From the NCBI GenBank assembly GCA_964016885.1, contig OZ024745.1:94302001-94366000 (forward strand): 64,000 bases of DNA, given 5' to 3'. The DNA is from Eledone cirrhosa. Lineage: Eukaryota. Under the pieces are notes generated by a model, which saw only the letters and a program-made list of their open reading frames with translations, made no database searches and had not been told where the DNA came from. The position numbers and the translations under genes were made by a program. Below are positions 21,308-63,898 of the stretch, piece after piece (position 1 is the stretch's first letter; each line of letters starts with the position of its first letter).

Positions 21308-21347
<40 letters not shown>

Positions 21348-21356: not shown

Positions 21357-21401
<45 letters not shown>

Positions 21402-21405
<4 letters not shown>

Positions 21406-21808: not shown

Positions 21809-21811
<3 letters not shown>
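21402..21811. mobile_element. Fold-back of PLE family-D 3' end; HHRs at 21440-21507 (-) and 21628-21690 (+, stem I damaged)
   Basis: CTGATGAgaacgcaaatatcatc…gatgatatttgtttt-GAAA-tgcgca-TA; homologous to 54270-54476. Confidence 0.82.
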
Positions 21812-21839
<28 letters not shown>

Positions 21840-22375: not shown

Positions 22376-22409
22376 GTAATACATACATCAAAAGGCAACC
22401 CTGACAAAT

Positions 22410-28557: not shown

Positions 28558-28590
<33 letters not shown>

Positions 28591-28593
28591 CAA

Positions 28594-30097
28594 CTATACA
28601 CCATGGGCCCAACACCACCACATTGGCAAGGGGGGACGCGTACGCATAACCATGGGAGGAAACGCAATACGAGTAGAAGTCTCAGAGGTGATACTCAACA
28701 CCCCGGGCCCGACGCCCCCAACCGCAAGACACGAAGAGAGAGGGACTGATGGAGGACCATCCCATTGTAGAGCTCTCAACGTGGGCAACAACCACCCCAC
28801 GGATAAGAGCCGGGAAGTTAGCAAAAACACATAGCGCCAAAGCTGCAATGCAGGAACTTCTAGCAACCCAACAACTCCCCAACAGCCCACGGCACGCTCA
28901 ACCCACCCACATAGGGGTAGACGCAGAAAAATCACGTGGTACAACCTACCCTACTCAGCAGCCCTAAAGAACAGCTTGGCCCGCTCATTCTTTAGAGCAC
29001 TAGATAAATGCTTCCGCAAGATCTTCAACAGACACACTGTGAAGCTCTCGTATTCTACCACACGAAATATGGCCCAGCACATAGCTAGCATCAATAAGTG
29101 TAGACTTAAAAACCACACACAACCAGAAGCTGGCAATATAAGCACCCAGCAGAACCATGTGGAAGGAAAGAGGGTGGACCCAGTGCCCACCCTGGAAACC
29201 CAAACAGACCTAGGGATCCCCACCGGGCCCGGGGGGAGGACCACCATATAATACGCAACGGGAACCCCACACTAGGCACGCGGAGGTCGACCACCTCCTG
29301 CAACTGCAGAAACCCCGAATTATACCCCCTTAGTAATGAATGCCTTAGGAAGAACTTAATATACGGATGTAGAGTAAAAAAAACCCAACTCTGAACACCT
29401 TTACATAGGAGCCACATCAACGCGCTTTAAAGACCGATGGTATAACCATCGCCATTCCTTTAATAGGGAGGACAAAAGGAAAAGTACGGCTGTTTCCGAA
29501 CTGATCTGGAAGCTCAAGCTGGACAGTACCCCGTACTCTCTGGTCTGGTCCAAAATCAGGAAAGTACCACCTGATAAAGGGGAATCTGGCATCTGCAAAC
29601 TATGTCTGAGCGAGACCCTCGAGATACTCAGCGGTGGAAGCAGCCTGATAAACCTCAGGACTGACTTCTTCGGGACCTTTCTCAAGCTATATGGACAGTA
29701 ACAACACATTGGGATGGGAACTTCCCTCAAGCTATAGGGACTTCTCCGGGACGTGTAGACACCTCAAGGCCGGGACCTTCCTCAAGCTACATGGACAATA
29801 ACAACACATTAGGATGGGACCCCCCCTCCCCTCAAGCTATAGGGACTTATCCGGGACATGTAGATACCTCAGGGCCGGGACCTTCCTCAAGCTATATGGA
29901 CAATAACAATACATTGGGGTGGGAACTTCCCTCTAGCTATAAAAAGAGCAGCCCCACCACACCGAGCGCACGGTAAACCACCCCCTGCACAATCACCACC
30001 CCTATCCCTGCCTCGATCGACTCCTGTGACAACACGTACTTATGCATATGTCCATACATAAAATCTGTTATATAAAATTGTACATGCACAGATACTT

Positions 30098-30149
<52 letters not shown>

Positions 30150-30151
30150 AT

Positions 30152-30188
<37 letters not shown>

Positions 30189-31209
30189 CATGTGTGTGTG
30201 TGCGTGTGTGTGTGTGTGTGTGTGTGCATAGGGGATGCACCAGGGCCTGTGCTTGTGCGTGTGTGCTTGGAACGATGTGAGTTGATACACACACATATGT
30301 ACTCTATGCCGAAATAGGAACTGTAGTCCTCTGAATCCCCGGTTTTAACACTCGGGTTCTGGTGTTTTACACTCCACCCTTGTCTCATTTGCTCTTAAAA
30401 CGCACCACACCATGATAGTGTAAAGATTATGATCCTTTGCACTTCCCGATCCTGACACACAGCCTTTCTACTTCAGTCAATATTTTCCAAATCTTTCAAA
30501 CTTTGAGATTGGTTATAACACACACGCATTTTATTTTATTCTTTTATTGTTTTATTATCTTATTCTTTTTATTATTTTATTATTTTTTTTATTTATTTTA
30601 AACACTTTTTTATCCTTTTATTTTCTTCATTTTATTGCCTCTAATTCTTTTATTTCTCCATTTTACATTATCTTATTTCTTTTATCTGTTTGCCCCCCAC
30701 CGACCACCACGGCAAATGGAGGCGGGGGGGGGGATGATGGATGCCAACCCAGACACACACATTCTTCTAAACATAGCAGCAGCAGAACTAAAGGTGACAT
30801 GCCTACTGATGCCCTGACCCCCTAACACCAATACAAAAGAGGAGCTCAGCTGTACTTAACAAAAACAACCACAACAGATTACCTTGCCTCAGAAAAATTT
30901 CTATAGACTTTTGACTGAGAAATGTTCTCAGAACTGACCAATGGGAGGAGAGAGTTCCTTTGATGCCGAAATTCGTTTGTTCGAATTCATATGATTCCAG
31001 TTCCTCAGAGAAATAACAACCCAACCAGGAACTGGGCATATCGGAGTATTGACGGAGTTAAACACCTCAACAACATATGTACCTGTCTCTACCAAACCAA
31101 TTCGGACTGCCTGAAGAGGTCACAGCCAAGGATGGCTGTCACCGAAATATATATAGCAGTACACCTTTAATAAACGAAGCCAAATTTTAAATATTTGACT
31201 TAATTATTT

Positions 31210-31210
<1 letters not shown>
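28594..31210 (+). mobile_element. 5'-truncated PLE (thumb + GIY-YIG, long 3' UTR with ~90-bp repeats)
   Basis: RRKITWYNLPYS…IFNRHTVKLSYS, SCNCRNP, YIGATSTRFKDRWYNH, CKLCLSE. Confidence 0.88.
31106..31160 (+). ncRNA. Type I hammerhead ribozyme
   Basis: actgc-CTGAAGA-ggtcacagcc…ggctgtcacc-GAAA-tatata-TA-gcagt; AATAAA 8 nt downstream. Confidence 0.85.
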
Positions 31211-31251
<41 letters not shown>

Positions 31252-31543
31252 GTATATATATATATGTATATATATGTATATATGTATATATATGTATATA
31301 TATATATATATGTATATATATGTATATATGTATATATATGTATATATATATATGTATATATATGTATATATATATATATGTATATATATATATGTATATA
31401 TATATGTATATATGTATATATATGTATATATATATATATGTATATATATGTATATATATATATATATGTATATATATGTATATATATGTATATATATATA
31501 TATATGTATATATATGTATATATATGTATATATATATATATGT

Positions 31544-31601
<58 letters not shown>

Positions 31602-31636
31602 ATATGTATATATATATATGTATATATGTATATATG

Positions 31637-31743
<107 letters not shown>

Positions 31744-31886
31744 GTATATATATATATATGTATATATATATATGTATATATATATATATGTATATATATA
31801 TATGTATATATATATATATGTATATATATGTATATATATATATATGTATATATATATATGTATATATATATATATGTATATATATG

Positions 31887-31933
<47 letters not shown>

Positions 31934-31996
31934 GTATATATATGTATATATATGTATATATATATCTATATATATGTATATATATGTATATATATG

Positions 31997-32129
<133 letters not shown>

Positions 32130-32138
32130 GTATATATG

Positions 32139-32169
<31 letters not shown>

Positions 32170-32228
32170 GTATATATATATATGTATATATATATATGTA
32201 TATATATATATATGTATATATATATATG

Positions 32229-32259
<31 letters not shown>

Positions 32260-32346
32260 GTATATATATATATGTATATATATATATGTATATATATATA
32301 TATGTATATATATATATGTATATATATATATGTATATATATATATG

Positions 32347-32377
<31 letters not shown>

Positions 32378-32390
32378 GTATATATATATG

Positions 32391-32421
<31 letters not shown>

Positions 32422-32446
32422 GTATATATATATATGTATGTATATA

Positions 32447-32478
<32 letters not shown>

Positions 32479-32479
32479 C

Positions 32480-32518
<39 letters not shown>

Positions 32519-32529
32519 CATATATATAC

Positions 32530-32578
<49 letters not shown>

Positions 32579-33023
32579 TATACATATATATATATATACA
32601 TATATATATAATAACAACACTCTCTCTTATAAATAATGATAGCAGCTATATCTATCGGTCTGTTATAAACAACGCTGAGATTGTACATAGATCGTTCTAT
32701 ATTGTTTTTGTTCGTTGCCGCAAGATGTCAGCATTTGTAAATTACTTGACTGGTTAACAATGCACTTCTACATTATAATTGTTGTAGTTTCAGTAAATGT
32801 CCCCAGATCAAGTCACTTGTCAAACAACCAGCCAAATTACATTTTAAAGAAATAGCCATCTGAGCCACTTTTTTTCCTATAAAAGAGAAATTATTTTCGA
32901 ACTCCAACTAGATGCGAGACAAACCACATCGCAATTATACTCTTGAAAAATCATAAGAACTGAAACCGGTAAAATAAATAAATATTCTTAAAGACTCCAG
33001 TTGCATTTTCAATTTCTTTTCCT

Positions 33024-33070
<47 letters not shown>

Positions 33071-33071
33071 A

Positions 33072-34569
33072 CTATACACCATGGGCCCAACACCACCACA
33101 TTGGCAAGGGGGACGCGTACGCATAACCATGGGAGGAAACGCAATACGAGTAGAAGTCTCAGAGGTGATACTCAACACCCCGGGCCCGACGCCCCCAACC
33201 GCAAGACACGAAGAGGGACTGATGGAGGACCATCCCATTGTAGAGCTCTCAACGTGGGCAACAACCACCCCACGGATAAGAGCCGGGAAGTTAGCAAAAC
33301 ACATAGCGCCCAAAGCTGCAATGCGGGAACTTCTAGCAACCCAACAACTCCCCAACAGCCCACGGCACGCTCAACCCACCCACATAGGGGTAGACGCAGA
33401 AAAATCACGTGGTACAACCTACCCTACTCAGCAGCCCTAAAGAACAGCTTGGCCCGCTCATTCTTTAGAGCACTAGATAAATGCTTCCGCAAGATCTTCA
33501 ACAGACACACTGTGAAGCTCTCGTATTCTACCACACGAAATATGGCCCAGCACATAGCTAGCATCAATAAGTGTAGATTTAAAAACCACACACAACCAGA
33601 AGCTGGCAATATAAGCACCCAGCAGAACCATGTGGAAGGAAAGAAGGGTGGACCCAGTGCCCACCCTGGAAACCCAAACAGACCTAGGGATCCCCACCGG
33701 GCCCGGGGGAGGACCACCATATAATACGCAACGGGAACCCCACACTAGGCACGCGGAGGTCGACCACCTCCTGCAACTGCAGAAACCCCGAATTATACCC
33801 CCTTAGTAATGAATGCCTTAGGAAGAACTTAATATACGGATGTAGAGTAAAAAAACCCAACTCTGAACACCTTTACATAGGAGCCACATCAACGCGCTTT
33901 AAAGACCGATGGTATAACCATCGCCATTCCTTTAATAGGGAGGACAAAAGGAAAAGTACGGCTGTTTCCGAACTGATCTGGAAGCTCAAGCTGGACAGTA
34001 CCCCGTACTCTCTGGTCTGGTCCAAAATCAGGAAAGTACCACCTGATAAAGGGGAATCTGGCATCTGCAAACTATGTCTGAGCGAGACCCTCGAGATACT
34101 CAGCGGTGGAAGCAGCCTGATAAACCTCAGGACTGACTTCTTCGGGACCTTTCTCAAGCTATATGGACAGTAACAACACATTGGGATGGGAACTTCCCTC
34201 AAGCTATAGGGACTTCTCCGGGACGTGTAGACACCTCAAGGCCGGGACCTTCCTCAAGCTACATGGACAATAACAACACATTAGGATGGGACCCCCCCTC
34301 CCCTCAAGCTATAGGGACTTATCCGGGACATGTAGATACCTCAGGGCCGGGACCTTCCTCAAGCTATATGGACAATAACAATACATTGGGGTGGGAACTT
34401 CCCTCTAGCTATAAAAAGAGCAGCCCCACCACACCGAGCGCACGGTAAACCACCCCCTGCACAATCACCACCCCTATCCCTGCCTCGATCGACTCCTGTG
34501 ACAACACGTACTTATGCATATGTCCATACATAAAATCTGTTATATAAGATTGTACATGCACAGATACTT

Positions 34570-34623
<54 letters not shown>

Positions 34624-35635
34624 TGTGCGTGTGCGTGTGTGTGTGTGTGCATAGGGGATGCACCAGGGCCTGTGCTTGTGCGTGTGTGCTTGGAACGATG
34701 TGAGTTGATACACACACATATGTACTCTATGCCGAAATAGGAACTGTAGTCCTCTGAATCCCCGGTTTTTAACACTCGGGTTCTGGTGTTTTACACTCCA
34801 CCCTTGTCTCATTTGCTCTTAAAACGCACCACACCATGATAGTGTAAAGATTATGATCCTTTGCACTTCCCGATCCTGACACACAGCCTTTCTACTTCAG
34901 TCAATATTTTCCAAATCTTTCAAACTTTGAGATTGGTTATAACACACACGCATTTTATTTTATTCTTTTATTGTTTTATTATCTTATTCTTTTTATTATT
35001 TTATTATTTTTTTTATTTATTTTAAACACTTTTTTATCCTTTTATTTTCTTCATTTTATTGCCTCTAATTCTTTTATTTCTCCATTTTACATTATCTTAT
35101 TTCTTTTATCTGTTTGCCCCCCACCGACCACCACGGCAAATGGAGGCGGGGGGGGGGATTATGGATGCCAACCCAGACACACACATTCTTCTAAACATAG
35201 CAGCAGCAGAACTAAAGGTGACATGCCTACTGATGCCCTGACCCCCTAACACCAATACAAAAGAGGAGCTCAGCTGTACTTAACAAAAACAACCACAACA
35301 GATTACCTTGCCTCAGAAAAATTTCTATAGACTTTTGACTGAGAAATGTTCTCACAACTGACCAATGGGAGGAGAGAGTTCCTTTGATGCCGAAATTCGT
35401 TTGTTCGAATTCATATGATTCCAGTTCCTCAGAGAAATAACAACCCAACCAGGAACTGGGCATATCGGAGTATTGACGGAGTTAAACACCTCAACAACAT
35501 ATGTACCTGTCTCTACCAAACCAATTCGGACTGCCTGAAGAGGTCACAGCCAAGGATGGCTGTCACCGAAATATATATAGCAGTACACCTTTAATAAACG
35601 AAGCCAAATTTTAAATATTTGACTTAATTATTTTA
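33072..35635 (+). mobile_element. Duplicate of the PLE at 28594-31210, HHR at 35530-35584
   Basis: Sequence near-identical to the first copy. Confidence 0.88.
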
Positions 35636-35638
35636 TTT

Positions 35639-35671
<33 letters not shown>

Positions 35672-35784
35672 GTATATATATATATGTATATATATGTATA
35701 TATGTATATATATGTATATATATATATATATGTATATATATGTATATATGTATATATATGTATATATATATATGTATATATATG

Positions 35785-35815
<31 letters not shown>

Positions 35816-35965
35816 GTATATATATATGTATATATGTATATATATGTATATATATATATATGTATATATATGTATATATATATATATATGTATATATATG
35901 TATATATATGTATATATATATATATATGTATATATATGTATATATATGTATATATATATATATGT

Positions 35966-36025
<60 letters not shown>

Positions 36026-36060
36026 ATATGTATATATATATATGTATATATGTATATATG

Positions 36061-36229
<169 letters not shown>

Positions 36230-36270
36230 GTATATATATATATGTATATATATATATATGTATATATATG

Positions 36271-36301
<31 letters not shown>

Positions 36302-36340
36302 GTATATATATATATGTATATATATATATGTATATATATG

Positions 36341-36371
<31 letters not shown>

Positions 36372-36392
36372 GTATATATATGTATATATATG

Positions 36393-36423
<31 letters not shown>

Positions 36424-36441
36424 TTATAAAATATATATATG

Positions 36442-36552
<111 letters not shown>

Positions 36553-36553
36553 G

Positions 36554-36586
<33 letters not shown>

Positions 36587-36595
36587 GTATATATG

Positions 36596-36626
<31 letters not shown>

Positions 36627-36697
36627 GTATATATATATATGTATATATATATGTATATATATATTTGTATATATATATATATGTATATATATATATG

Positions 36698-36728
<31 letters not shown>

Positions 36729-36771
36729 GTATATATATATATGTATATATATATATGTATATATATATATG

Positions 36772-36818
<47 letters not shown>

Positions 36819-36819
36819 G

Positions 36820-36882
<63 letters not shown>

Positions 36883-36883
36883 G

Positions 36884-36914
<31 letters not shown>

Positions 36915-36947
36915 GTATATATATATATGTATGTATATATATATATG

Positions 36948-37010
<63 letters not shown>

Positions 37011-37032
37011 GTATATATATATATGTATATAT

Positions 37033-38699
37033 AGGAACCAGTAAGACCCCGACAGCTGAGCTCAAGCCGTTTCGACGGCTAATTCTGGACTAAATGAAAA
37101 TTTATCCTGGTATTTAAATAGCCGATCTTCTCAAGGGGTAATTCCATATATGGTCAAAGTGATTGTCAAAAATCAGTAGTAATTCTGTGGTTGCAAATTA
37201 GTAGGGGAGATGGTGGCTAAACCTGCCAGTAGGAGAAAGAGGGGAGGGGGTGGAGTAGACCCAATCAAGCGTTGGTAGTGCCAGCTACAGCTGGGCATGA
37301 GGTCAAAGAAGATACAGGGGAGGGGGAGGGGGAGGAAGTCGGAACGGTAGGTAGAACAATGGGGGGTAGAAAAATATATATAGGAAAGAAAAAATACTGA
37401 GAGTGAAGAAAAGCAAATAAATGTAAAGAAAAAAGTAAAGTAAATTAAATTCTACGACCTAGGTCTCAGGCTATTGTTAGGCTAGAATAAAATAAAGAAA
37501 GAAAGAAAGAAGTAAAGAAATAAATAAATAAAGAAATAACGAAATAAGTAAAAGAACTAGGTGGGACGGATAGGCAAGGACCCTTTTAAGAGGTATAAGT
37601 ACGTAAATGATACGGTCACGGGTCAACAAAAGGGGCCAAAATACTAAAGAGACTACCACGAAATAAACAATAAAGGTTTCCATCCCGGGCCAGCAACGAC
37701 CCAGTGCAGCAAAGTGAACTAGTACGAGATAATAATTCTGAGTCCCGAGAAAAATATATACTAATGCTAACTCTAAAAGATCTAAAACAAGCTACATGAA
37801 AGTTCGTACGAAATAAAGGTAGAATACGGAGAAATAAATTCAGAATCCACCCCGCCCAGAAGAAAAGCGAGGCAAGAAATACTGAAACGAAAAAATAAGG
37901 CATAAGTGCCACTAAGAAATATAGAGGGCACAGAGAATAGTGGGAGCGGTCGGAAAAAGGGGGCAAGTATCCGGGGTCTAAGCCAACTGCTATAAAGGGC
38001 GGAGTCCGCCAAATCTATCATAGACTAGGGGAGGGGGTGGTGGGGGTACTAAGGCTACATGGGGCCAAAGGGCAGCCTCGGGTGGGCGAGAAAAGACGCC
38101 GACAAAGGAGAAGAGCTGGGGTAGAAGGACTAAGGAGAGAGGGGGGGGAGGAAATAAAGGAAGCGATAAAAGAATACAAAGAAGATCTTACGTCTTCCTT
38201 GGCAAGCAGGGGTTACCCATTGCAAAATCGGCAAGTGGGGTGTTATAGCCCTAGTCTACCCCCCCCGGGTCATTATGGGGTTTGAGGGCGAGGTAAGTCT
38301 TACGCAATCTATGTTTACATGCAGTGACCAGTTCATCTTTCTTGTTTAGGAGTTGGTCCGTCGAAAACAGCATTTGTAAAGTTTCCTCCGAGCATAAATT
38401 GCACGGACGGCGTCCTCCCGTGTAAGAATTGGCTCTGGACAGTAATCTCCAAGTGAGATCATAGGTGATGTTGTTGTCCTTGAGGTCCCATATGTGGCCC
38501 GAAAGTGTAGTGGCGTGACGCCGGGCCGGGTTTCGGAAGGTATGTCTATGTTGGTATAGCCGGGTCTTGAAGTCACATGCGGTAAGTCCTATATAGGCTT
38601 TGTTGGAGGTATCCGTCCTCACGTTGCACTGGTAGATCACATTACGAAGCCTATATAGGACTTGCCGCATGTGACTTCAAGACCCGGCTATACCAACAT
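37033..38699 (-). mobile_element. 5'-truncated PLE family B (GIY-YIG 38251-38648, long 3' UTR) with short 5' inversion
   Basis: NVIYQC…[17 protein letters not shown]…CNLCSEE…CKH; 38649-38699 is the reverse complement of 38548-38596. Confidence 0.9.
37046..37139 (-). ncRNA. Hammerhead ribozyme, U3-A8 core variant
   Basis: acccc-TTGAGAA-gatcggcta…tagccgtc-GAAA-cggct-tgagctc-agctg-TC-ggggt. Confidence 0.75.
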
Positions 38700-38993: not shown

Positions 38994-39792
38994 GTTTACA
39001 TATACATAAACTTGACAGAGCCATATATATATATATATGTTTTTGGCAACCATTCACGGTGTGGCTCAATGACGAACTAATTAATTAAATAATCAACAAT
39101 CAGAGCAATATATAAGAAAGTAAGTCCATAGAATAATTTGATAAATATATACAGTATTTCTTCTCTCAATCAGCATAATCAACCACACAAAAAATCAATT
39201 AAACGAGGCTATAAGTTTAAAATGAACCTACGAAGAAGCAATAGATAAATAAATGATAGCTATTTTATCCGCGATCCACAGCCACAGTAGATTTACCTAG
39301 TATTTCTAATAGCCCGTAGAAATTGACTAGACATATAGTTAACCATACACAATTAGGTACAAAATAAAAGTTAGAAGAAAAATGTATATAAACATATCAA
39401 AATCATGTTTCTACCTCCGGCGTTTTCATTCGCTTTTTGGAAATATCCGATCATGGATAAATCAACGAGTTTCGAAATCATCAGGAAACAAACTCAATTG
39501 GACAAAGATTTTTCTTAAATGATCCTCGCCAGAAATGAATCCAAAAAGCGAATGAAACCTTCGAGGGTAGAAACAGATCGAACCTTGAGTTGGTCAGTGT
39601 CGAAACGCGCGTCACCAATCAATAAACGTAATGAAGGAGTAACCAATCGTCCTTGTTATCTTATTTAACTATAGTACACTCTGTATAGCTCTACACCTAG
39701 AAACTGAAGTGAACCTAAACATCGAGTGCTCACCCGGGTGAACCTACAGTAACTCCAAGTTACACTCCCTGTATATAAATATATATATATAT

Positions 39793-39975
39793 ATAGAAAC
39801 AGACATATACTACAAGCCCACAGACTCCAAGCAATATCTTCCTTTCAACTCTTGCCACCCTAGACACGTTAAAATTAATATTCCCTACAACTTAGCCAAG
39901 AGAATCTGTACTATAGTCTCCAATAAAAACACCTGCTTCTTACGGCTACAAGAACTAAAGGACACACTCATAGGC
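39793..39975 (+). pseudogene. PLE RT thumb fragment (Neptune/Poseidon-like); duplicate at 41742-41924
   Basis: IETDIYYKPTDSKQYLPFNSCHPRHVKINIPYNLAKRICTIVS. Confidence 0.85.
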
Positions 39976-40362
39976 ATATATATATGAATAGGTATAGTTT
40001 AGATATAATTAGTTATAATTTTATATTCCGATTTCTTTTCCACCTGTCATATATATAACAAGATAAACTTAACGTTCTTCCTGTAATATTGTCGCATAGA
40101 ATTTTTCGCATCTTATTTCCGTTGAGCTTTTTACAGAACAACGAAACCTAGATGTTTTTGTTTCCAATTACTTTTACTTGTTTACCCCCCCCCCCCATAT
40201 ATATATATATATATATACTAGTTGTTGCGTTTCACACATTTTTTTGTAAGAAAATGATGATTGATTTTAAATCAGTGACATCATTTATGGGGAAAAACTC
40301 TGCATTTCAATATTACTCAATGTAAAATTTAATGTATGAAACAATGGAAAACATTATTTTTT

Positions 40363-40547
40363 GATTGGCAGTATTGGTAGAGGGTCGGACGCCATGCTTT
40401 GACGTATAGAGTTACGGCCCTTGCCATTCTGAGTTCAAATCCCGCCAGGGTTAACTTTGCTTTTCATCCTTACGGGGTCGATAAAATAAAGTACCAGTAA
40501 TGCACTGGCTAATTGCTGGCCTTGTGTCTAAAGTAGAAACAATTATT
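40363..40547 (+). mobile_element. tRNA-SINE; further plus-strand copies at 42327-42512, 43447-43604, 46145-46298 and 46320-46495
   Basis: B box GAGTTCAAATCC, core ttcatccttacggggtcgataaaataaagtaccag, tail agtagaaacaattat. Confidence 0.9.
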
Positions 40548-40839
40548 TTTTGTAAAAATAATAATTTTTTGTAATATATGAAATCAAAATTACATTATTA
40601 AATCTTATTCTAATTTTATTTCTTGTAAATAATTTTTTCAAAATATCAATTCAAAACTTTTGTTAATAGGCATGAGATCTTGTCATTTACCTATGGCTTA
40701 AATTTCATATAAACCGAAGGGAAACAATTTTCAGCGGGGTCTTGAGCCCCCGGGGAACCCTAATAGTGGGTTTAACCCCATTAGGGTTTAACCCCCATTA
40801 GGGTGAAATGATATTTTTTATATTTTTTATCCATAACAT

Positions 40840-40907
40840 CTCTGTCTGATGACCCGTCCAGACGTATATTAATATTGTCTGGGATCCAGAAACCTTTGGC
40901 AATGGAG
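40840..40907 (+). ncRNA. Degenerate hammerhead (duplicate at 42806-42873)
   Basis: ctctgt-CTGATGA-…ccagac…gtctgg…-GAAA-cctttgg-CA-atggag; U16.1 changed to C, so probably inactive. Confidence 0.5.
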
Positions 40908-41001
40908 TAGTTATATTTTGTCTTATTCACTTTCTAATTAAATAGTTCTATTCTATACATAGAGCACGCTTTTTTCCTTTGCTTTTCCTTCGGAATTACC
41001 T

Positions 41002-41062
<61 letters not shown>

Positions 41063-42142
41063 CTGTGTGTGTATATGTATGTATAGGTATGGAAAGCCCA
41101 AAATTAGTGCTTCAAACAATAATACCGGACAAAGTACTGTAGTTGATATAATGAACTAAAAATTGACTGCGGTGTCCCAGCATGGTCACAGTGGAATGAC
41201 TGAAATAAGTAAAAGAATATAATGTTTTATTTGTTGAAGCAAATCAATAAAAATGACATTAATTCAATCAGTGTCTCATTAAAAAACAAAAGAAAACAAC
41301 TCAACTAAAACACAAAATAAAAGTTAGAAGAAAAATGTACATAAACATATCAAAATCATGTGTCTACCTCCGGGGTTTTCATTCGGTTTTTGGAAATATC
41401 CGATCATGGATAAATCAACGAGCTTCGAAATCATCAAGAAACAAACTCAATTGGACAAAGATTTTTCTTAAATGATCCCCGCCAGAAACGAATCCAAAAA
41501 GCGAATGAAACCTTCGGGGGTAGAAACAGATCGAACCTTGAACTGGTCAGTGACGAAACGCGCGTCACCAACCAATAAACGTAATGAAGGAGTAACCAAT
41601 CGTCCTTGTTATCTTATTTAACTATAATACACTGTATAGCTCTATACCTAGAAACTGAAGTGAACCTAAACATCGAGTGCTCACCCGGGTGAACCTACAG
41701 TATCTCCAAGTTACACTCCCTGTATATAAATATATATATATATAGAAACAGACATATACTACAAGCCCACAGACTCCAAGCAATATCTTCCTTTCAACTC
41801 TTGCCACCCTAGACACGTTAACATTAATATTCCCTACAACTTAGCCAAGAGAATCTGTACTATAGTCTCCAATAAAAACACCTGCTACTTACGGCTACAA
41901 GACCTAAAGGACACACTCATAGGCATATATATATGAATAGGTATAGTTTAGATATAATTAGTTATAATTTTATATTCTGATTTCTTTTCCACCTGTCATA
42001 TATATAACAAGATAAACTTAACGTTCTTCCTGTAATATTGTCGCATAGAATTTTTCGTATCTTATTTCCATTGAGCTTTTTACAGAACAACGAAACCTAG
42101 ATGTTTTTTGTTTCCATTTACTTTTACTTGTTTACACCCCCC

Positions 42143-42182
<40 letters not shown>

Positions 42183-42994
42183 TAGTTGTTGCGTTTCACA
42201 CATTTTTTTGTAAGAAAATGATGATTGATTTTAAATCAGTGACATAATTTATGGGGAAAAACTCTGCATTTCAATATTACTCAATGTAAAATGTAATGCA
42301 TGAAACAATGGAAAACATTATTTTTTGATTGGCAGTATTGGTAGAGGGTCGGACGCCATGCTTTGACGTATAGAGTTACGGCTCTTGCCATTCTGAGTTC
42401 AAATCCCGCCAAGGTTAACTTTGCCTTTCATCCTTACGGGGTCGATAAAATAAAGTACCAGTAATGCACTGAGTAATTGCTGGCCTTGTGCCTAACGTAG
42501 AAACAATTATTTTTTGTAGAAATAATAATTTTTTGTAATATATCAAATCAAAATTACATCATTAAATCTTATTCTTATTTTATTTCTTGTAAATAATTTT
42601 TTTCAAAATATCAATTCAAAACTTTTGTGAAGAGGCACCATATCTTGTCATTTACCCATGGCTTAAATTTCATATAAACCGAAGGGAAACAATTTTCAGC
42701 GGTCCCTTGAGCCCCCGGGGAACCCTAATAGTGGGTTTAACCCCCATTAGGGTTTAACCCCCATTAGGGTGAAATGATATGTTTTATATTTTTTATCCAT
42801 AGCATCTCTGTCTGATGACCGATCCAGACGTATATTAATATTGTCTGGGATCCAGAAACCTTTGGCAATGGAGTAGTTATATTTTGTGTTGTTCACTCTC
42901 TAATTAAATAGTTCTATTCTATACATAGAGCACTCTTTTTTCCTTTGCTTTTCCTTCGTAATTACCTCACACACACACACACATATATAAATAA

Positions 42995-43064
<70 letters not shown>

Positions 43065-43764
43065 ATATGTATGTATAGGTATGGAAAGCACAAAATTGGT
43101 GCTTCAAACAATAATACCGGACAAAGTACTGTAGTTGATATAATGAAGTAAAAATTGACTGCGGTGTCCCAGCATGGTCACAGTGGAATGACTGAAATTA
43201 GTAAAAGAATATAATGTTTTATTTGTTGAAACAAATCAATAAAAATGACATTAATTCAATCAGTGTCTCATTAAAAAACAAAAGAAAACAACTCAACTAA
43301 AACCCCAAATAGAGGACATATGTTATAACACACATCTTAGTTTGTAAATGTTTATGACAAAACGATGTTGGACCGCCGCCGTTAACAACGAATTTATAAC
43401 TGAAAGTAGTGATAAATCATTTATTAGTCAACATTATGGACATAAACGGACGCCATGCTTTCCAGCAGAGTTATGTCCCTTTACGGTCTGAGTTCAAATC
43501 CCGCCGAGTTTAACTTTGCCTTTCATCCTTACGGGGTCGATAAAATAAAGTACCAGTAATGTACTGGGTGATTGCTGGCCTTGTGCCAAAAGTAGAAACA
43601 ATTATGGACATTAATGGAAAAAATGTTTTAAATGTATTTTATTACCAACGTTGACTGTTGCTAGATATTTTTCCTTGTAAATCTTAAATGTCGATAAATT
43701 CCTCTGCCTAAATTTTTGGAATATGTTCCAGGTGTTCATTTTGTATGTAGTATTTTAATATAGA

Positions 43765-45045
43765 TGATGGAGGTACTCTTAGTAACATTGGTGATGGAAG
43801 GTACTCTTAGTAACATTTTATCATTAGTGGTGGAAGGTACTATAAGTAACATTTTATAATTGGTGGTGGAAGGTACTATAAGTAACATTTTATCATTGGT
43901 AGTGGAAGGTACTCTTAGTAACATTTTATCATTGGTGGTGGAAGGTACTCTTAGTAACATTTTATCATTGGTGGTGGAAGGTACTCTTAGTAACATTTTA
44001 TCATTGGTGGTGGAAGGTACTCCTAGTAACATTTTATCATTGGTGGTGGAAGGTACTATAAGTAACATTTTATCATTGGTGGTGGAAGGTACTATAAGTA
44101 ACATTTTATCATTGGTAGTGGAAGGTACTCTTAGTAACATTTTATCATTGGTAGTGGAAGGTACTCTTAGTAACATTTTATCATTGGTGGTGGAAGGTAC
44201 TCTTAGTAACATTTTATCATTGGTGGTGGAAGGTACTCTTAGTAACATTTTATCATTGGTGGTGGAAGGTACTCTTAGTAACATTTTATCATTGGTGGTG
44301 GAAGGTACTCTTAGTAACATTTTATCATTGGTGGTGGAAGGTACTCTTAGTAACATTTTATCATTGGTGGTGGAAGGTACTCTTAGTAACATTTTATCAT
44401 TGGTGGTGGAAGGTACTCTTAGTAACATTTTATCATTGGTGGTGGAAGGTACTCCTAGTAACATTTTATCATTGGTGGTGGAAGGTACTCTTAGTAACAT
44501 TTTATCATTGGTGGTGGAAGGTACTCTTAGTAACATTTTATCATTGGTGGTGGAAGGTACTCTTAGTAACATTTTATCATTGGTGGTGGAAGGTACTCTT
44601 AGTAACATTTTATCATTGGTGGTGGAAGGTACTCTTAGTAACATTTTATCATTGGTGGTGGAAGGTACTCCTAGTAACATTTTATCATTGGTGGTGGAAG
44701 GTACTCTTAGTAACATTTTATCATTGGTGGTGGAAGGTACTCTTAGTAACATTTTATCATTGGTGGTGGAAGGTACTCTTAGTAACATTTTATCATTAGT
44801 GGTGGAAGGTACTCTTAGTAACATATTATCATTGGTGGTGGAAGGTACTCTTAGTACCATTTTATCATTGGTGGTGGAAGGTACTCCTAGTAACATTTTA
44901 TCATTGGTGGTGGAAGGTACTCTTAGTAACATTTTATCATTGGTGGTGGAAGGTACTCCTAGTAACATTGGTGGTGGAAGGTACTCCTAGTAACATTGGT
45001 GGTGGAAGGTACTCCTAGTAACATTGGTGGTGGAAGGTACTTATA
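43765..45045. repeat. 36-bp minisatellite, roughly 33-35 copies, ending in 27-bp variants
   Basis: Unit tggtggtggaaggtactcttagtaacattttatcat. Confidence 0.97.
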
Positions 45046-47133
45046 GTGAAATTTAAAATTTGGTGATGGAAGTAACTTAAAACTTCAACAAATATGCTAA
45101 ACCTAGAACATGATAGTGAATTCAATACATGTCCAAAAGAATAGTTGTTCTATAGTCACACACACACACACATACACATACACACTTACATAGACACAGA
45201 CAGACACAGACAAAGACACACACATATATATATATACATGAACACATATATATATATACATACATTTATACATACACACATTCACACATACACATACATG
45301 CATACATACTAGATACAAAGATATCCATACATGCATACATACATACACACACACACACATACTTGCATACATATACACATACACATACTTGCATACATAC
45401 ACACATACACATACATGCATACATACACACATACACGTACATGCATACATACACACATACACGTACATGCATACATACCCACATACACATGCTTGCATAC
45501 ATACACACATACACATACATGCATACATACATAATTACATACACAGATACATATATACATACACATACATACATACATAGATACATATATACATACACGC
45601 ATACACACATACACACATACATACCTTATATGATAAAATTATTACGGAAAGCGACGGAGTTATATTTAAAGTTACCTTTATTCAATATTTCACACAGGTG
45701 TTTCAAAGTATCATAGATCTTTCAATGTATCCTTGGAGATTCCTTTTATACAATCTCCTTTTATTCAATGATATTTCCATTGGATTTTAGTTGATATGTT
45801 TAGACGTAAACAATAAATAAATTCGATTTACTTACAAGCAGTGGGCATCAATTTTTTAAGTACTTATCTTTAAAGGAGGTTCCTTTAAATGAAACGCTAT
45901 TGTCATATACTTGTTTATTTACTTATCTGCTTATTTCTGAGTTTTTTTTGAGCGGGTTAGGTTTGTTATGTATGAAGTTAGTAATTAGTTAGATCAATCA
46001 AAGTTTAGAATCTACCAAAGAATCCGTGGAAGATGAGGAGATAGAGAAATGGGAAGAATTTTCAAATCTATAGAATTAACACCCATTTACATTTTTATGT
46101 ATAGTAAATGTTTATTTCCTAAGATTTGATATCTAACTAAATGTTAGTATCGGTAGAGGGTCTGACGCCCTTTATGGTCTGAGTTCAAATCCCGCCGAGG
46201 TTAACTTTGCCTTTCATCCTTACGGTGTCGGTAAAATAAAGTACCAGTAATGTACTGGAATAATTACTCGCCTTGTGCCAAAAGTAGAAACAATTATTTT
46301 CTAGGATACCCTGCTTCGTGACATAGAGTTACAGCCCTTTATGTTCTGAGTTCAAATCCCGCCGAGGTTAAACTTTGTCTTTCATCCTTACGGGGCCAAT
46401 AAAATAAAGTATCAGTAATGCACTGGGGTCGATTTAATCGACTTTCCCCTTCCCTGAAAATTGTTGGCCTTGTGCCTAAAGTAGAAACAATTATTTCCCA
46501 AGAGATAATTGAAGTTGTTTTCGTTATCCCACCTTTTTTTCCAGGTTATCCATTAGAGGCTTTAAGTAAATGTTGAGACTTTTTCCTCTTTGTCTAAAGT
46601 ACCAGTCCAGTACTGGCGTCAGTTCTTCCTCTACAGAAAAAAATCGGCTGTGTTGAGACCTGGAGAAGGTTGGACCCCGCCAGGTTTAAAAGTGCCCTAG
46701 ACACGCCGTATGATAGTGCCTCTACGACTCCACAAGGAGTTTTGGGATCTTTATCCTTTATCCTAAAGACTAACTTAAGTGTCGCCGGACATTTTACAGG
46801 TGTTATTGTTTACATTAGGATATCTACGGATCAAAACAATGGTTTGAACTGCTTTTTATTGTCTTTTAGACGATAAACCTGTGTTTTAGAAGACCAGCCA
46901 TCTCTCCCTCTTCGACGGGGATATCTCTCTCCCACTATAAGATGTGTGAGAGATGTCTTCTCTTGTGAAAATGGGTATAGCTTTCATTATGTAAAATCTC
47001 CCATTTTGCCCCATTTCTCCTCGATTTGGCGCACTTTTTTCATGGTACTCCCTGTTTGGGTTTTTAGAGGTTGTCAGGTCTGGTTTTAGAATTTAGATAT
47101 GTTTTCGAATAGTATTTGTTAGATGTAATTTAT

Positions 47134-48272: not shown

Positions 48273-48310
<38 letters not shown>

Positions 48311-48313
<3 letters not shown>

Positions 48314-48400
48314 TAAAATAACAGATTAAAGTTTAAGCAAAGGATTCTTTGCTTAAACTTTAATCTGTTATTTAAAAAAATATTTGCTCTACGGTTATAT
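48311..48400. mobile_element. Micro fold-back of the U4A-HHR family 3' end
   Basis: taacagattaaagtttaagcaaag / ctttgcttaaactttaatctgtta. Confidence 0.7.
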
Positions 48401-50384: not shown

Positions 50385-50400
50385 ATATATATATATATAT

Positions 50401-51287
50401 GAGAAAGTATGACCCCGACGGCAGAGCTCAAGCCGTTTCGACGGCTATTTCTGGACTAAAGTAAGAGTTTTTAGTCTGGTAAATAAATAGCCGAACTTTC
50501 CAAGGGGTACTTTCTTATATGGGAAGATTGTAGTTATCAAGGGGATTGGTCAAAATTTGTAGCAGACACAGAAAAGTCTATCATGGCAGTGGATGCGGGG
50601 TGGGGGTGGCTGAGCTTGCCTGTAGAACGATAGGGGAGTGGGTAGAGCCGGTCAAGCGTTGAAGGTGAAATCTATACGGCAAATTCTAAGGAATGTGTAT
50701 GAAAGTAGGCCAGAGGAGGTAGGCGAAAAAAGGTTTCTTGAGAAAATGGAGGAGGGACGTTATAGAATTGGTAAATCAAATGAGATTAGGAGACAATGAA
50801 AAAATATAATAAAAAGAACATAATAAAAAATGAGAGAAAGATATATCATAATGTAAGATTGGAAAGTGAGAAGTGAAATAAAACAAAAACTAAGGAGTCT
50901 AACAGAGCTGCTATATTTAGTTGGTGTTGCTTTTTAGGCCAATGCTATAGAATGAGTTGCTAGATGAGAATCATTGAAATTTTAGAATTGGGTATTAAAA
51001 ATTAATACATCTCTGGGGTCTAATACAGCTGCCATGAATAGTTAGGATAGCGTAATCGGCCAATGCTATCTATAAGTTACAGGGGTGGGAGTACTGAGGC
51101 TAAAGAGGCCCGATGGGCTGCCTCGGGATAGGCGAAAGGGAAAAAAAACAAAGAAACGAACGAGGAAGAAAATCGGTGGTGGAAAGAAGTGATAGGAGGA
51201 GACAAAGGGAAGAAGAAAACATAGAGGAAAAGAAAAGAGGTACATCTACCTATATAAGTTGGGGTTTTCGCTATCTTATTCGGCAAT
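50401..51287 (-). mobile_element. PLE family-B-like 3' UTR with variant HHR at 50403-50514
   Basis: gaaagta-cccc-TTGGAAA-gttcggcta…tagccgtc-GAAA-cggcttgagctctgccg-TC-gggg-tca-tactttc; patchy homology to 37033-38235. Confidence 0.8.
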
Positions 51288-54593
<3,306 letters not shown>

Positions 54594-54661: not shown

Positions 54662-54729
<68 letters not shown>

Positions 54730-54736
54730 TATATAT

Positions 54737-55772
54737 AAATGGAAAAAATGAAATTTCATTTCTCACTCTTAGTACGGCTGTTACTTAAATGTAAGTATGT
54801 ATACGTACATAATATATGTATACAGACGTACAGCAGTATGTATATACATACATGCACACATATATATATGTACGTATGGGTTTACCGAACATTTATTATA
54901 ATGCTCGGTTTGTTTGTAAACAAACAGCCCGAATTAAGCCGTACAGTCTTCGGCAACCACCGTTACCATTTTGTTTAACACTGACAAAGGAACGATGAAC
55001 TAGTTTCATTTTTTTCCATTTATCGTTTTCGGTACGTCCGGCCGACTAACTCACTCGATATGCAAATTAGGAAAGTATATACTTTTAAAAGGAAGGTATA
55101 CAGTGCTGATGATAGCTAATAAGCTAGAAACTAGTTCATCGTTTCTTTGTCAGTGTTGAACAAAATGGCAACGATGGTTGCCGAACACTACGGCTTAATT
55201 CGGGCTGTTTGTTTACAAACAAACCGAGCATTATAATAAATGTTCGGTAAACCCATACGTACATATATATATCTATGTGCATGTATGTATGTATATACAT
55301 ACTACTGTACGTCTGTATACATATATGTATGTACGTATACATACTTACATTTAAGTATCAGCCGTAGTAAGAGTGATAAATGAAATTTCATTTTTTCCAT
55401 TTATCGTTTTCGGTACGCCCGGCCGACTAACTCATTCGATATGCAAATTAGGCTGCTCAGCCGTTAATATGCATAAGGAAAGTATATACTTTCAAACGTT
55501 GAATCATCTGAAAGGAAGGTATACGGTGCTGATGACAGCTAATAAACTAGAAACTAGTTCATCCTTCCTTTGTCAGTGTTGAACAAAATGGCAACGATGG
55601 TTGCCGAACACACTGTACGGCTTAATTCGGGCTGTTTGTTTATAAACAAACCGAGCATTATAATAAATGTTCGGTAAACCCATACGTACATATATATATA
55701 TGTGTGCATGTATGTATGTATATACATACTGATGTACGTCTGTATACATATATGTATGTACGTATACATACA
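54737..55772. mobile_element. Retrozyme-like family R1: inverted arm plus tandem ~1.9-mer; HHRs at 55100-55142 and 55523-55565 (+)
   Basis: CTGATGA-tagctaataagcta-GAAA-ctag-TT-catc repeated with a 423-nt period; no credible ORF; (TA)n flanks. Confidence 0.83.
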
Positions 55773-55802
55773 TTTATATATATATATATAAACAAGCTAC
55801 AG

Positions 55803-55896
<94 letters not shown>

Positions 55897-56775
55897 CTGT
55901 AGCTTGTTTAGCCTGTGTCTAAATCCAACACTAAACAATTTATTTATATTCTTAATAGAGATAGGGTGGTCATGACGGGAAAGTCAAGTAGTGTAGATGC
56001 TAGAATGTACAATAATGATGACGACTTAAATAAAATTCTCTTCTTTAACGGTCGAATGTAATCGCGCTTTCCTTGATATCCCTCTAATGAATCTCATTAT
56101 GTAAATTTACATGATGACTATATGGTAATGTTATTTACGCAGCAAAGAGAGCAGACTTATGAAAGTCAAAACATTATCCTAAAGTGTAACCAGACGAAAG
56201 TTAATTAGGTAATCTTGATGACATTTAACAGAATATTAAAAGGATAAATTGTAGTGAGGAAAGGTTAAAGGTTCGTTGAGATAGAATAAAGTTTATGTAT
56301 TAGTGTTCACAAGTTATTTTCCCGAAGTATAAATAAATTCTCGAGTAATTGAGAACATAAATATAATTAGCAGTGGAAATACGTGGGATATATGTAGGAT
56401 ATTCCAATAACACTTACATGTCTACTATATACATATACCTTTATTGACATACACACATACATATATGTATACCCACGTATAAGTATGCATACGTACTTAT
56501 GTAAGTATATGTGTGTATGAATAAGTTTATGCAGCAGCATCAGGTGTCATTAGGTGCTGGGTTCATGTCACTTACTATAGCTTCGAGTTGATCCAAAGAT
56601 TGTGAATAAAATTGGGTAGAATGAAACTGTGTGGATAGATTTTACCTGTCCAAAGTCCAGCCATGATTCTACTTGAGGATGACTTTAAATGTACGTATGA
56701 CCGCGGCACATTTAGCCATTTTACACGCTAATTCAATGAACAGATAATTCAAATGACTGGGCAAATAAATAAATA

Positions 56776-57629: not shown

Positions 57630-58280
57630 GAGTGGTGGATTGACAGAATCGGTAGAGCGTCGGACAATATAATTTGTAGCATAGATTTACGTCCCTTTAC
57701 GTTCTGAGTTCAAATCCCGCTGATGTTAGCTTTGCCTTTTATCCTTACGGGGTCGATAAAATAAAGCACCAGTCACGCACTGGGGTCGATTTAATGGACT
57801 GTCCCCCCCCCCCCCAAAAAAAAAAAATTGCTGGCCATGTGCCTAAATCAGAAACCATTATTTTAGTCACTGGATTGGCAGTATCGGTAGAGGGTCGGAC
57901 GCCATGCTTTCCAGCATAGTTACGTCCCTTTACGATCTGAGTTCAAATCCCGCAGAGGTTGACTTTGCCTTTCATCCTTACGGGGTCGATAAAATAAAGT
58001 ACCAGTAATGAACTGGGTAATTGCTGGCCTTGTGCCTAAAAGTAGAAACAATTATTTTAGTCACATATAAGAGCGGTGGATTGGCCGAACTGTTAGTGCT
58101 TTGTATTATTTTTTCTGGCTCAATACGTTCCGAGTTCAAATCCCACAAAAGTAAACTTTGCCTTTCACCTTTTCTGGGTCGATAAAATATAGTACCAGTA
58201 AAGCACTGAGGTTGATTTATTTGACTTACTCCTTCCCACAAATTACTGGTATTATGCTAAGAATTAGAAAGAATTAGTTT
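57630..58280 (+). mobile_element. Cluster of three tRNA-SINEs (57630-57862, 57872-58056, 58070-58280)
   Basis: B boxes and shared core sequence. Confidence 0.88.
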
Positions 58281-58871
58281 AATCGCATATAGTGTCTATA
58301 AATTTGAATGCATGCAAGTGTAAACATATTTGGATGATTAAAGTCTGAATGTGTGTCTATGTGGAATTTCTATTTGATATATGCATATTTTATATTTAAC
58401 CCTATGTTAATTTATATTCATATATATTCAGTAGTACATATGTTTTCGTTTATTATGTGCTCTTCTCACTTCTCTCTATCTATTTATCATTCACGCTCGT
58501 GTTTGTAGGTATGTAATGTTTGAGTTAGTGTGTTTGTGAATGTTAAAAATGGACGTAAGACAGGGATAATTATAATGAGTTAATTCGATCAACTTGGTAT
58601 AAATATAATCAGTGTTTTATCGGCAATAATTAGTTCCTACGTCATCATGGAGAAATAAAATCAATTACAAGTCTTTATCGTATTAATTTATCTCAGCTGG
58701 AATAGTCACGAACTAAGTAAATATAACTTCAGTAGACTTTAAGATAATTTAGCCCCAAATTAATGATAACCTTTGACTAGACAAAAGGCCAATTATTTAT
58801 TTTCTTGAGTAAGATCTGATTTTGACACCTAGGAAAAGTGGAAAGTGTGCTATTTTATTGTTTATGTCATT

Positions 58872-59738
58872 ATAGCACCACCAAAAATAATGGTTTCTTA
58901 TATTAAAATAATTGTTTCTACTTTAGGCACAAGGCCAGCAATTACCCAGTGCATTACTGGTACTCTATTTTATCGACCCCGTAAGGATGAAAGGCAAAGT
59001 CAACTTCGGCGGGATTTGAACTCAGATCGTAAAGGGACGTAACTATGCAGGAAAGCATGGCGTCCGACCCTCTACCGATACTACCAATCCACTCCATTCA
59101 AATAATGGTTTCTTATATAGCACCACCAAATATAATGGTTTCTTATATAGCACCACCAAAATAAGGGTGTCTTATATTAAAATAATGGTTTCTTATATAG
59201 CACCACCAAAAATAATGGTTTTTTATATTAAAATAATGGTTTCTGATATAGCACCACCTAAAATAATGGTTTCTTATATAGCACCACCAAAAATAATGGT
59301 TTCTTATATTAAAATAATGGTTTCTGATATAGCACCACCTAAAATAATGGTTTCTTATATAGCACCACCAAAAATAATGGTTTCTTATGTTGCACCACCA
59401 AAAATAATGGTTTCTTATATAGCATCACCAAAAATAATAGTTTCTTATATAGTACCACCAAAAATAATGGTTTCTTATATAGCACCACCAAAAATAATGG
59501 TTTCGTATATAGCACCACCAAAAATAATGGTGTCTTATCTAGGCACAAGGCCAGCAATTTTGGGGGAAGGGAAAGTCGATTAAATCAACCATAGTGCTTG
59601 ATTGGCACTTTATTTATCGACCCCATAAGGATGAAAGGCAAAGTTAACCTGGGCGGTATTTGAACTCAGATCAGAAAGGGCAGTAACTCTATGCTGAAAA
59701 GCATGGAGTCAGACCCTCTACCGATACTGCCAATCCAT
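58872..59738 (-). mobile_element. Two SINEs (58907-59092, 59540-59738) flanking a 30/21-bp minisatellite (59100-59540)
   Basis: Unit aaaataatggtttcttatatagcaccacca. Confidence 0.88.
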
Positions 59739-59900
59739 CACCCTCCAAAAATTATAATTTAGTAGTAGTAAAAATAACAACTAGTTAAATAACAAGTAGT
59801 TAATGGTACATGATTGAAACGTATATTCTCACGCGTGTTTTCCCTTTCCATCCTCTTCTCACTCTTTATCTTTCTATTTCATCTTTTATTTCTAATTCTA

Positions 59901-63620: not shown

Positions 63621-63686
<66 letters not shown>

Positions 63687-63689
<3 letters not shown>

Positions 63690-63832
63690 GTAGAACACTG
63701 GAAGGTAATATCCGTAGTGGTAGAGCACTCAGTCCATGGGACGAGTTAGGTAGAAGTGGTTACACAACAGTTAGTTCACCGTACCGAGAACAATTCTCGG
63801 TATGGTGAACTAACTGTTGTGTAACCACTTCT
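63687..63832. mobile_element. Micro fold-back of PLE family-A 3' end
   Basis: Matches 7676-7784; inverts at accgagaa-caa-ttctcggt. Confidence 0.85.
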
Positions 63833-63839
63833 CTCTCTC

Positions 63840-63898
<59 letters not shown>

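Follow-up and report, generated by a model that had tools for sequence, protein, structure and literature searches.

The window (the whole stretch of DNA that was analysed, 64,000 nucleotides) contains an array of short hammerhead ribozyme (HHR) units, here termed R1, flanked on both sides by (TA)n microsatellites. The array (54665–55879 including flanks) was delimited by self-BLAST, folding and inspection of the sequence, and has the following features.

54665–54735, no strand: (TA)n microsatellite, left target flank (sequence)
54736–55007, minus strand: arm A, inverted and 5'-truncated, monomer 414–423 followed by 1–267 (self-BLAST)
55004–55007, no strand: 4-nt microhomology at the head-to-head junction (sequence)
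55004–55136, plus strand: arm B, partial unit, monomer 250–423 (self-BLAST)
55088–55148, plus strand: HHR1, type I; stem I of 3 bp with a bulge and a distal helix, stem II of 5 bp
Predicted cut after 55136, plus strand: cleavage triplet GUU of HHR1, which passes the full descriptor
55137–55559, plus strand: unit C, the 423-nt monomer between the predicted cuts (sequence)
55254–55343, plus strand: long internal hairpin rich in TA/CA, directly before the short 3' end (folding)
55348–55403, plus strand: 'tail' of about 50 nt between the two 3'-end phases (sequence)
55441–55448, plus strand: octamer ATGCAAAT, also in arm B (sequence)
55511–55571, plus strand: HHR2, predicted cut after 55559; stem II with two mismatches
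55560–55776, plus strand: arm D, monomer 1–217, ending at the short 3' end (self-BLAST)
55777–55879, no strand: (TA)n, right target flank, broken by a short inverted copy of flanking DNA (self-BLAST)

Arm A, rightly described in the initial annotation as an inverted arm beginning at GAAA, overlaps the plus arm by 4 nt; its own end is the long 3' end and includes the tail. The unit contains a 16-nt palindrome (monomer 242–257), from whose centre the plus arm begins, and the right end of the array lies at 55776. Arm B lacks a 26-nt and a 16-nt block found in unit C and is 41 nt shorter than its counterpart there, so unit length varies. Unit C has a GC content of 36% and a minimum folding energy of −134 kcal/mol (z −8.24; 0/100 shuffles as stable). 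The longest ATG ORFs of the circularised monomer are 47 aa (plus strand) and 68 aa (minus strand), and comparison of the monomer with 120 proteins of Penelope-like elements (PLEs) gave no credible match (best E 0.036). The tail is bounded by the monomer's only two CATTTA motifs (212–217 and 262–267).

The octamer ATGCAAAT occurs at 55441–55448 and at about 55060, with a variant 28 nt downstream, and family depth is at its maximum over this block in both organisms A and B (see below). We take it to be a possible, putative snRNA-type promoter element; the snRNA-type promoter of newt satellite 2 offers a parallel, on which a literature search found nothing relevant. Flanking DNA is duplicated in short inverted form on the other side of (TA)n at 55789–55910, 38548–38699, 48306–48383 and 63752–63832, which suggests hairpin-type repair at these microsatellites. 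A different HHR family lies at 54222–54480, 260 bp to the left of the array, with (CA)n(TA)n(TG)n in between; relatives of this family at 21395–21813 form a fold-back with short and long ends.

Ribozymes of the unit

CUGAUGA cores were located by sequence inspection at 55106 and 55529, with predicted cuts after 55136 and 55559 and a spacing of 423 nt, in agreement with the two type I ribozymes and the non-coding monomer first annotated. Only one pairing register brings A15.1 opposite U16.1 while still allowing a stem I, and it was adopted. In this register helix III is the 6-nt palindrome ACUAGU (the A15.1–U16.1 pair plus a CUAG loop), which replaces the loop III palindrome AACUAGUU originally named; a register based on AACTAGTT was dropped as it mispairs position 15.2.

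Family variation was taken from 4 of 23 runs (X1, X4, X5 and X21), aligned on 55137–55600 at 85% likeness; X1 holds contigs of organism A, possibly from the assembly's own sample, X21 holds RAD reads of organism A, and X4 derives from organism B. H17 is U at the main locus and A in the copy at 11184, in 71% of X1 depth, in 91% of X21 depth (where allele shares are biased by RAD restriction ends) and in 2% of X4 depth. AACTAGTT is incidental because H17 is A in the 11184 copy and in most family reads.

In stem I of HHR1 a 6-nt bulge separates 3 bp from a distal helix, which is up to 9 bp long. The core pattern matched 23 times in the window against 1.72 expected, and the full type I descriptor was satisfied at five sites against a mean of 0.05 in 100 shuffles; HHR1 is the only one of three R1 ribozymes among them. 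HHR2 fails the strict stem II descriptor owing to its two mismatches, and the ribozyme copy at 11214 has a mismatch in stem I. One HHR2 mismatch is the A at 55546, a position that is G in about 99% of family depth (99.8% in X1, 95% in X4), so stem II of HHR2 is weakened by a rare allele. The G10.1–C11.1 pair that closes stem II in canonical type I ribozymes is absent from the unit; the corresponding pair is U-A in HHR1, C-A in HHR2 and U-U in copy E (listed below) and most X21 reads. The active dimer fold lies 10–25 kcal/mol above the predicted minimum, and together with the missing closing pair this indicates that cleavage may be weak. Minimum-energy folding of monomer or dimer did not recover the active ribozyme, a result that is not decisive. 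The ribozyme is predicted to work as a dimer paired through ACUAGU, in line with the earlier suggestion of dimeric action.

A search of 55040–55620 against Rfam returned no hammerhead in 38/38 matches to E 10; among the matches listed in a wider search, only low-complexity miRNA-like ones appeared, none at gathering score.

Dispersed copies, 3' ends and family data

Self-BLAST of the window yielded seven R1 arms at three loci (A–D, E with F, and G). The further copies reported initially were present, with bounds amended to 10969–11424 and 4355–4533.

10969–11223, minus strand: copy E, monomer 1–214 preceded by an HHR that has a GUA triplet and a mismatch in stem I (self-BLAST)
11227–11424, plus strand: copy F, monomer about 79–264, head-to-head with E (self-BLAST)
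4355–4533, minus strand: copy G, monomer 35–211, short end (self-BLAST)

In copy E the short end, and in copy F the long end, is joined to (TA)n. A 14-nt AT-only repeat on both sides of copy G is a possible target-site duplication; inside (TA)n, at loci A–D and E–F, such a duplication is not definable.

The 3' ends fall at monomer positions 217 (D), 211 (G), 214 (E), 264 (F) and 267 (A), that is, in two phases 50 nt apart, 211–217 (7 nt) and 264–267 (4 nt), at or beside the two CATTTA motifs. The 5' ends vary (about 414, 250, 385, 79 and 35). The tally comprises five ends at three loci in a 64-kb window; the chance that five uniform ends fall in two 10-nt windows is 0.0009, these windows being set post hoc and paired arms not being independent. 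Both two-armed loci (A–D and E–F) have one short and one long end each. All five 3' ends adjoin TA-rich sequence, which upholds the proposed insertion into (TA)n; they avoid the TA-richest stretch of the monomer (129–190), and homology to the target is therefore not a sufficient explanation. Cleavage sites are read through in the B–C–D array and in arms A and E alike. The initial description of the array as circularly permuted holds relative to the cleavage site and fails for the 3' ends, which are fixed. Two fixed 3'-end phases and an inverted copy make up the PLE signature of a 'tail' plus inverted copy.

Seven PLE coding remnants were detected in the window by tblastn, with an additional GIY-YIG fragment at 24178–24624, and there are at least six other repeated HHR-core families. 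A coding PLE remnant of a different family, with an inverted copy, served as comparator.

7676–10272, no strand assigned: coding PLE remnant with inverted copy, RT-like ORF at 7996–9423 (minus strand)

Its HHR cores lie at 7807 and 10205. Its two ends, each within (TA)n, are found 66 and 132 nt past the core and are spaced by about 65 nt; named matches of its ORF are cnidarian, at 38–41% identity. A coding PLE remnant with a minimal HHR and a tail of about 65 nt is recorded at 7676–10272, 17665–17800 and 63649–63880; it has a cysteine cluster ahead of the endonuclease region and is possibly Neptune/Nematis-like. HHR families at 21395–21813 and 17900–18650 have the same pattern of short and long ends as R1. 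Head-to-head fold-backs of two HHR families, with ends in TA-rich sequence, were noted at 20536–21309 and 17900–18653.

Further repeats were recorded in the window. A tandem pair of PLE remnants of about 4.4 kb, 96% alike, occupies 28144–37033; each HHR has the palindrome ATATATAT as its helix III, and 1.4 kb of degenerate (TA)n comes next. A second tandem pair at 39359–43311 (units of about 1.96 kb, 93.5% alike, HHR cores at 40846 and 42812) gave no PLE protein match by tblastn and is possibly a larger non-autonomous PLE. A GC-rich nested hairpin family between (TA)n runs, in which no HHR core was found, lies at 5817–6533, 36970–37150 and 50385–50520. An uninterrupted 1,152-aa Tx1-like LINE ORF (endonuclease, RT and zf-RVT) lies at 11869–15327, its best named match being from Argonauta hians (64% identity), and a frameshifted relative, about 80% alike, lies in the opposite orientation at 1–4032. 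On the match of this one transposon protein the host is likely an octopod, and a SINE resemblance points the same way. A SINE-like repeat of about 190 bp has more than ten copies (5308–5520, 22406–22740, 40336–40570, 57630–59740 and others), and there are minisatellites of 36 bp in 33 copies (43744–45072) and 30 bp in 16 copies (59100–59542).

A reading in which the array arose at the DNA level, as a minisatellite or fold-back artefact (unequal crossover, hairpin repair at (TA)n or misassembly) holding a dead ribozyme remnant, could draw on the frequency of fold-backs around (TA)n in the window and on the damaging mismatches in HHR2 and the 11214 ribozyme. The dispersed copies, with variable 5' and fixed 3' ends, instead fit insertion from an RNA template; with differences of about 3% plus indels, the arms are not assembly duplicates, and the stem II G at 55546 is about 99% kept in X1 and 95% in X4. 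This origin is considered highly improbable.

Family pieces numbered 13,060 in X1, 7,786 in X4 and 471 in X5, and 37,342 of 12.47 million reads in X21. Depth was found in 27–29 of 29 bins, two empty bins corresponding to a masked repeat; the short end is masked in these data (55311–55350). The abundance, taken with three loci per 64 kb, suggests a copy number of the order of 10^4–10^5, summed depth itself being no copy number. The long end at 55403 is bridged, with at least 31 letters on each side, by 3 of 24 listed pieces, and the junction of the tail with the next unit is seen in both organisms (X1 record 2; X4 records 9 and 10). Since 1,360 X21 reads with loose ends before 55391 likewise run on as unit sequence, the tail is commonly joined to a next ORF-less unit. 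ORF-less tandems are a trait of the family.

It could be argued that the unit is simply the pLTR of a coding PLE and that the array results from the chance joining of two or three copies truncated at the 5' end. The insertion anatomy equals that of coding PLEs in the window; the loose-end rows covered are 24 of 958, and after 55475 the sequence of 25 X4 contigs departs from the unit into a consensus that is not unit sequence (agreement 0.54). Yet the junction of tail and next unit recurs in organisms A and B, none of the 24 loose ends listed is ORF-like after the tail, and the unit bears no trace of PLE protein. We regard this explanation as quite unlikely; a rare coding parent may exist, and would then be a partner, with the family not refuted.

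Three other signals in the read data were treated separately. (AT)n stands directly before 55263 in 1,513 X21 reads and 77 X4 contigs, and represents an internal TA tract that has expanded, or else copies that are truncated at the 5' end and fused to target. Pile-ups in X21 at 55283 and 55446/55449 were rejected as RNA or insertion ends because they coincide with CATG and AATT, presumably the sites of the RAD enzymes. Joints near 55553–55588 that go back within the unit were discarded as evidence for tandems or circles since they result from a 41-nt terminal overlap of the reference. Exact-pattern scans of metagenome contigs and viral contigs returned 0 loci.

Template and mechanism of insertion

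Arms A, C and D differ from one another by 5–6 substitutions in about 170 nt, from G by 11–14 and from E by 17–18, and thus plausibly derive from one source lineage. Arms A and D have a TG insertion and G at 55304, and C has neither; the insertion is polymorphic in the family (874/6,655, or 13%, of X21 depth, itself subject to the RAD bias). Site 55169 groups C with D, against the pairing of A with D. Two block deletions separate B from C, as does site 55536, where 43% of X1 is T. These differences between units argue moderately for a mixed multimeric template over one monomer circle, the argument resting on two to three sites; a dimeric circle or gene conversion fits them too. That A and D are sisters is what read-through of a diverged donor tandem would predict, with both DNA ends primed on the last unit.

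The initial annotation had PLE RT rolling around a circRNA, taken here as one monomeric circle that makes the whole array with free permutation of its ends, and had named fixed ends as evidence to the contrary; 5/5 3' ends in windows of 7 and 4 nt are what was found, and adjacent units differ. A monomer circle would explain why the RT crossed every cleavage site in the arms and why A, C and D share family-rare alleles (T at 55166, for example, makes up about 6% of depth); a circle, too, could have fixed start sites, and circles are known in other retrozymes and were proposed as templates in the accessible text of two papers (PMC7229834, PMC4209133). However, it predicts identical units, whereas an indel found family-wide and one other site set C apart from A and D, and the two blocks and a 43%/57% polymorphism set B apart from C; random permutation was not seen among the five ends in the window, and ribozyme cleavage was dispensable for anole PLE insertion in vitro (PMC11167929, in the part available). 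Although the model could be saved by template switching, by a dimeric circle or by gene conversion at a later stage, rolling on one monomer circle seems unlikely, and circles are not required to account for R1 insertion at the main locus.

L1-style twin priming was suggested by the near-continuity of A (ending at 267) and B (starting at 250). It was rejected as a general rule since 267 is a fixed end, and is also disfavoured by the lack of such continuity at the 10969–11424 locus.

PLE insertions are described, in the accessible sections of Craig et al. (2021; PMC8557442) and Arkhipova et al. (2013; PMC3846280), as partial tandems with adjacent inverted copies and an optional 30–40-bp tail, at microsatellite or AT-rich targets and with pLTR-driven mobilisation in trans. 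In the portion available of Frangieh et al. (2024; PMC11167929), a PLE protein is reported to cut AT-rich DNA on both strands and to extend each of them; RT starts at two internal sites, and the distance between these corresponds to the tail. In vitro, RNA that has not been cleaved serves as the principal template, and ribozyme cleavage is dispensable.

The preferred reading, to which we give a probability of about 0.68, is that R1 is a non-LTR retrozyme copied in trans by the RT and endonuclease of a PLE, likely from uncleaved multimeric RNA. The retrozyme-type family of ORF-less type I tandems proposed at the outset is thereby supported, with the PLE machinery as its most likely inserter. 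A donor tandem would be transcribed through several units and PLE protein would bind the RNA near the tail. The endonuclease would cut (TA)n on both strands, and each DNA end would prime cDNA at one of two internal starts (monomer about 215 or about 265). One cDNA would span nearly two units (D, C and B) and the other about 280 nt (A), and the two would join at the 4-nt microhomology. Paired ribozymes, the predicted dimers, would release monomers of 380–425 nt, ligatable into circles as in coral, mussel and axolotl.

Relation to known elements

Cervera and de la Pena (2020; PMC7229834), in the text available, give a definition of non-LTR retrozymes, demonstrate circles for coral, mussel and axolotl elements, and consider PLEs a strong partner candidate; dimeric cleavage and templating by circles were proposed by the same authors (2014; PMC4209133, accessible part). 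Where a target-site duplication is present in non-LTR retrozymes, it is >4 bp. R1 resembles the metazoan elements described there (Acropora, Mytilus, axolotl Rtz_331/Rtz_353), which have tandem 150–450-bp units with one type I HHR each, GC under 50%, no ORF, strong self-pairing, unit-length indel variants and co-occurring PLEs: its unit lies in the same size range, consecutive units carry a type I HHR, the monomer is non-coding, below 50% GC and highly self-paired, and the family is multicopy with the tandem junction in other copies. As in HHR_Amex1, helix III is one pair with a palindromic tetraloop, and most X21 reads have a U-U pair at the helix II base, as HHR_Amex2 does. R1 differs in its likely octopod lineage, in that cleavage and circRNA are here predicted only, and in its PLE tail, inverted arms and (TA)n targeting, features not described in the accessible text of that paper.

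A PLE origin of retrozymes was argued by Li et al. (2026; bioRxiv 10.64898/2026.07.22.740005) from 35 genomes, with no mollusc in the part available, and cleavage was obtained in 1/9 dimers tested. Their conclusion on origin, namely ORF-less pLTR-like units dependent on PLEs, agrees with that drawn here for R1; their evidence consists of co-occurrence and pLTR homology, as given in the accessible text, whereas that for R1 is insertion anatomy, no homologous pLTR having been found in the 64-kb window. The main locus may not count as 'active' in their sense because HHR2 fails the strict stem II descriptor. Goubert et al. (PMC8969392), as far as available, repeat the possible dependence of retrozymes on PLEs, and the accessible part of the giant squid genome paper (PMC6962438) gives only a count of 235 Rfam hammerhead matches.

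R1 shares with EN+ PLEs (Penelope/Poseidon, Neptune, Nematis and Naiad; PMC8557442, PMC3846280 and PMC11167929, each in part) 5' truncation, a partial tandem with an adjacent inverted copy, an optional tail, AT-rich or microsatellite targets and an HHR in the repeat; at its main locus an inverted 5'-truncated copy stands beside the partial tandem, and the two fixed 3' ends account for 5/5 in the window. It differs from them in having no ORF between repeats (the RT and GIY-YIG ORF between pLTRs of an autonomous PLE was not found in R1), a tail of about 50 nt against 30–40, and an HHR with extended helix I in place of the minimal form. Chlamys elements such as MRC1 (PMC8557442, accessible sections) are likewise non-autonomous PLEs with multicopy head-to-tail insertions, but their clade is green-algal and is described as having no canonical hammerheads. 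Non-autonomous Chlamys elements resemble their autonomous partners at the 3' end, whereas R1 is without a known partner: comparison of the unit with the HHR ends of coding PLEs in the 64-kb window revealed no similarity and no partner PLE. R1 is likely a non-autonomous PLE derivative in a likely octopod.

In the literature covered on retrozymes and PLE hammerheads, cephalopods included (subscription journals mostly lying outside this coverage), the R1 family was not described; nor, irrespective of taxon, was any retrozyme with a PLE tail.

The enzyme that moves animal retrozymes has so far been argued from co-occurrence and homology, and a tandem of ORF-less hammerhead units bearing the PLE-specific inverted arm and tail gives a more direct fingerprint. 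The case also argues against taking a tandem array by itself as evidence that a circle was the template. For an assay of PLE mobilisation in trans, R1 supplies a minimal cis template of 423 nt in which the start sites are predicted. As the retrozyme class and its link to PLEs are already published, the present case extends that picture and does not overturn it. More tentatively, and with some doubt, octopods may share across species a retrozyme of 10^4–10^5 copies with an internal snRNA-type promoter and abundant circRNAs of 380–425 nt, in which the PLE tail and inverted arms would prove PLE mobilisation and name two RT start sites. If expressed, the family would constitute a large unannotated class of cephalopod non-coding RNA missed by Rfam.
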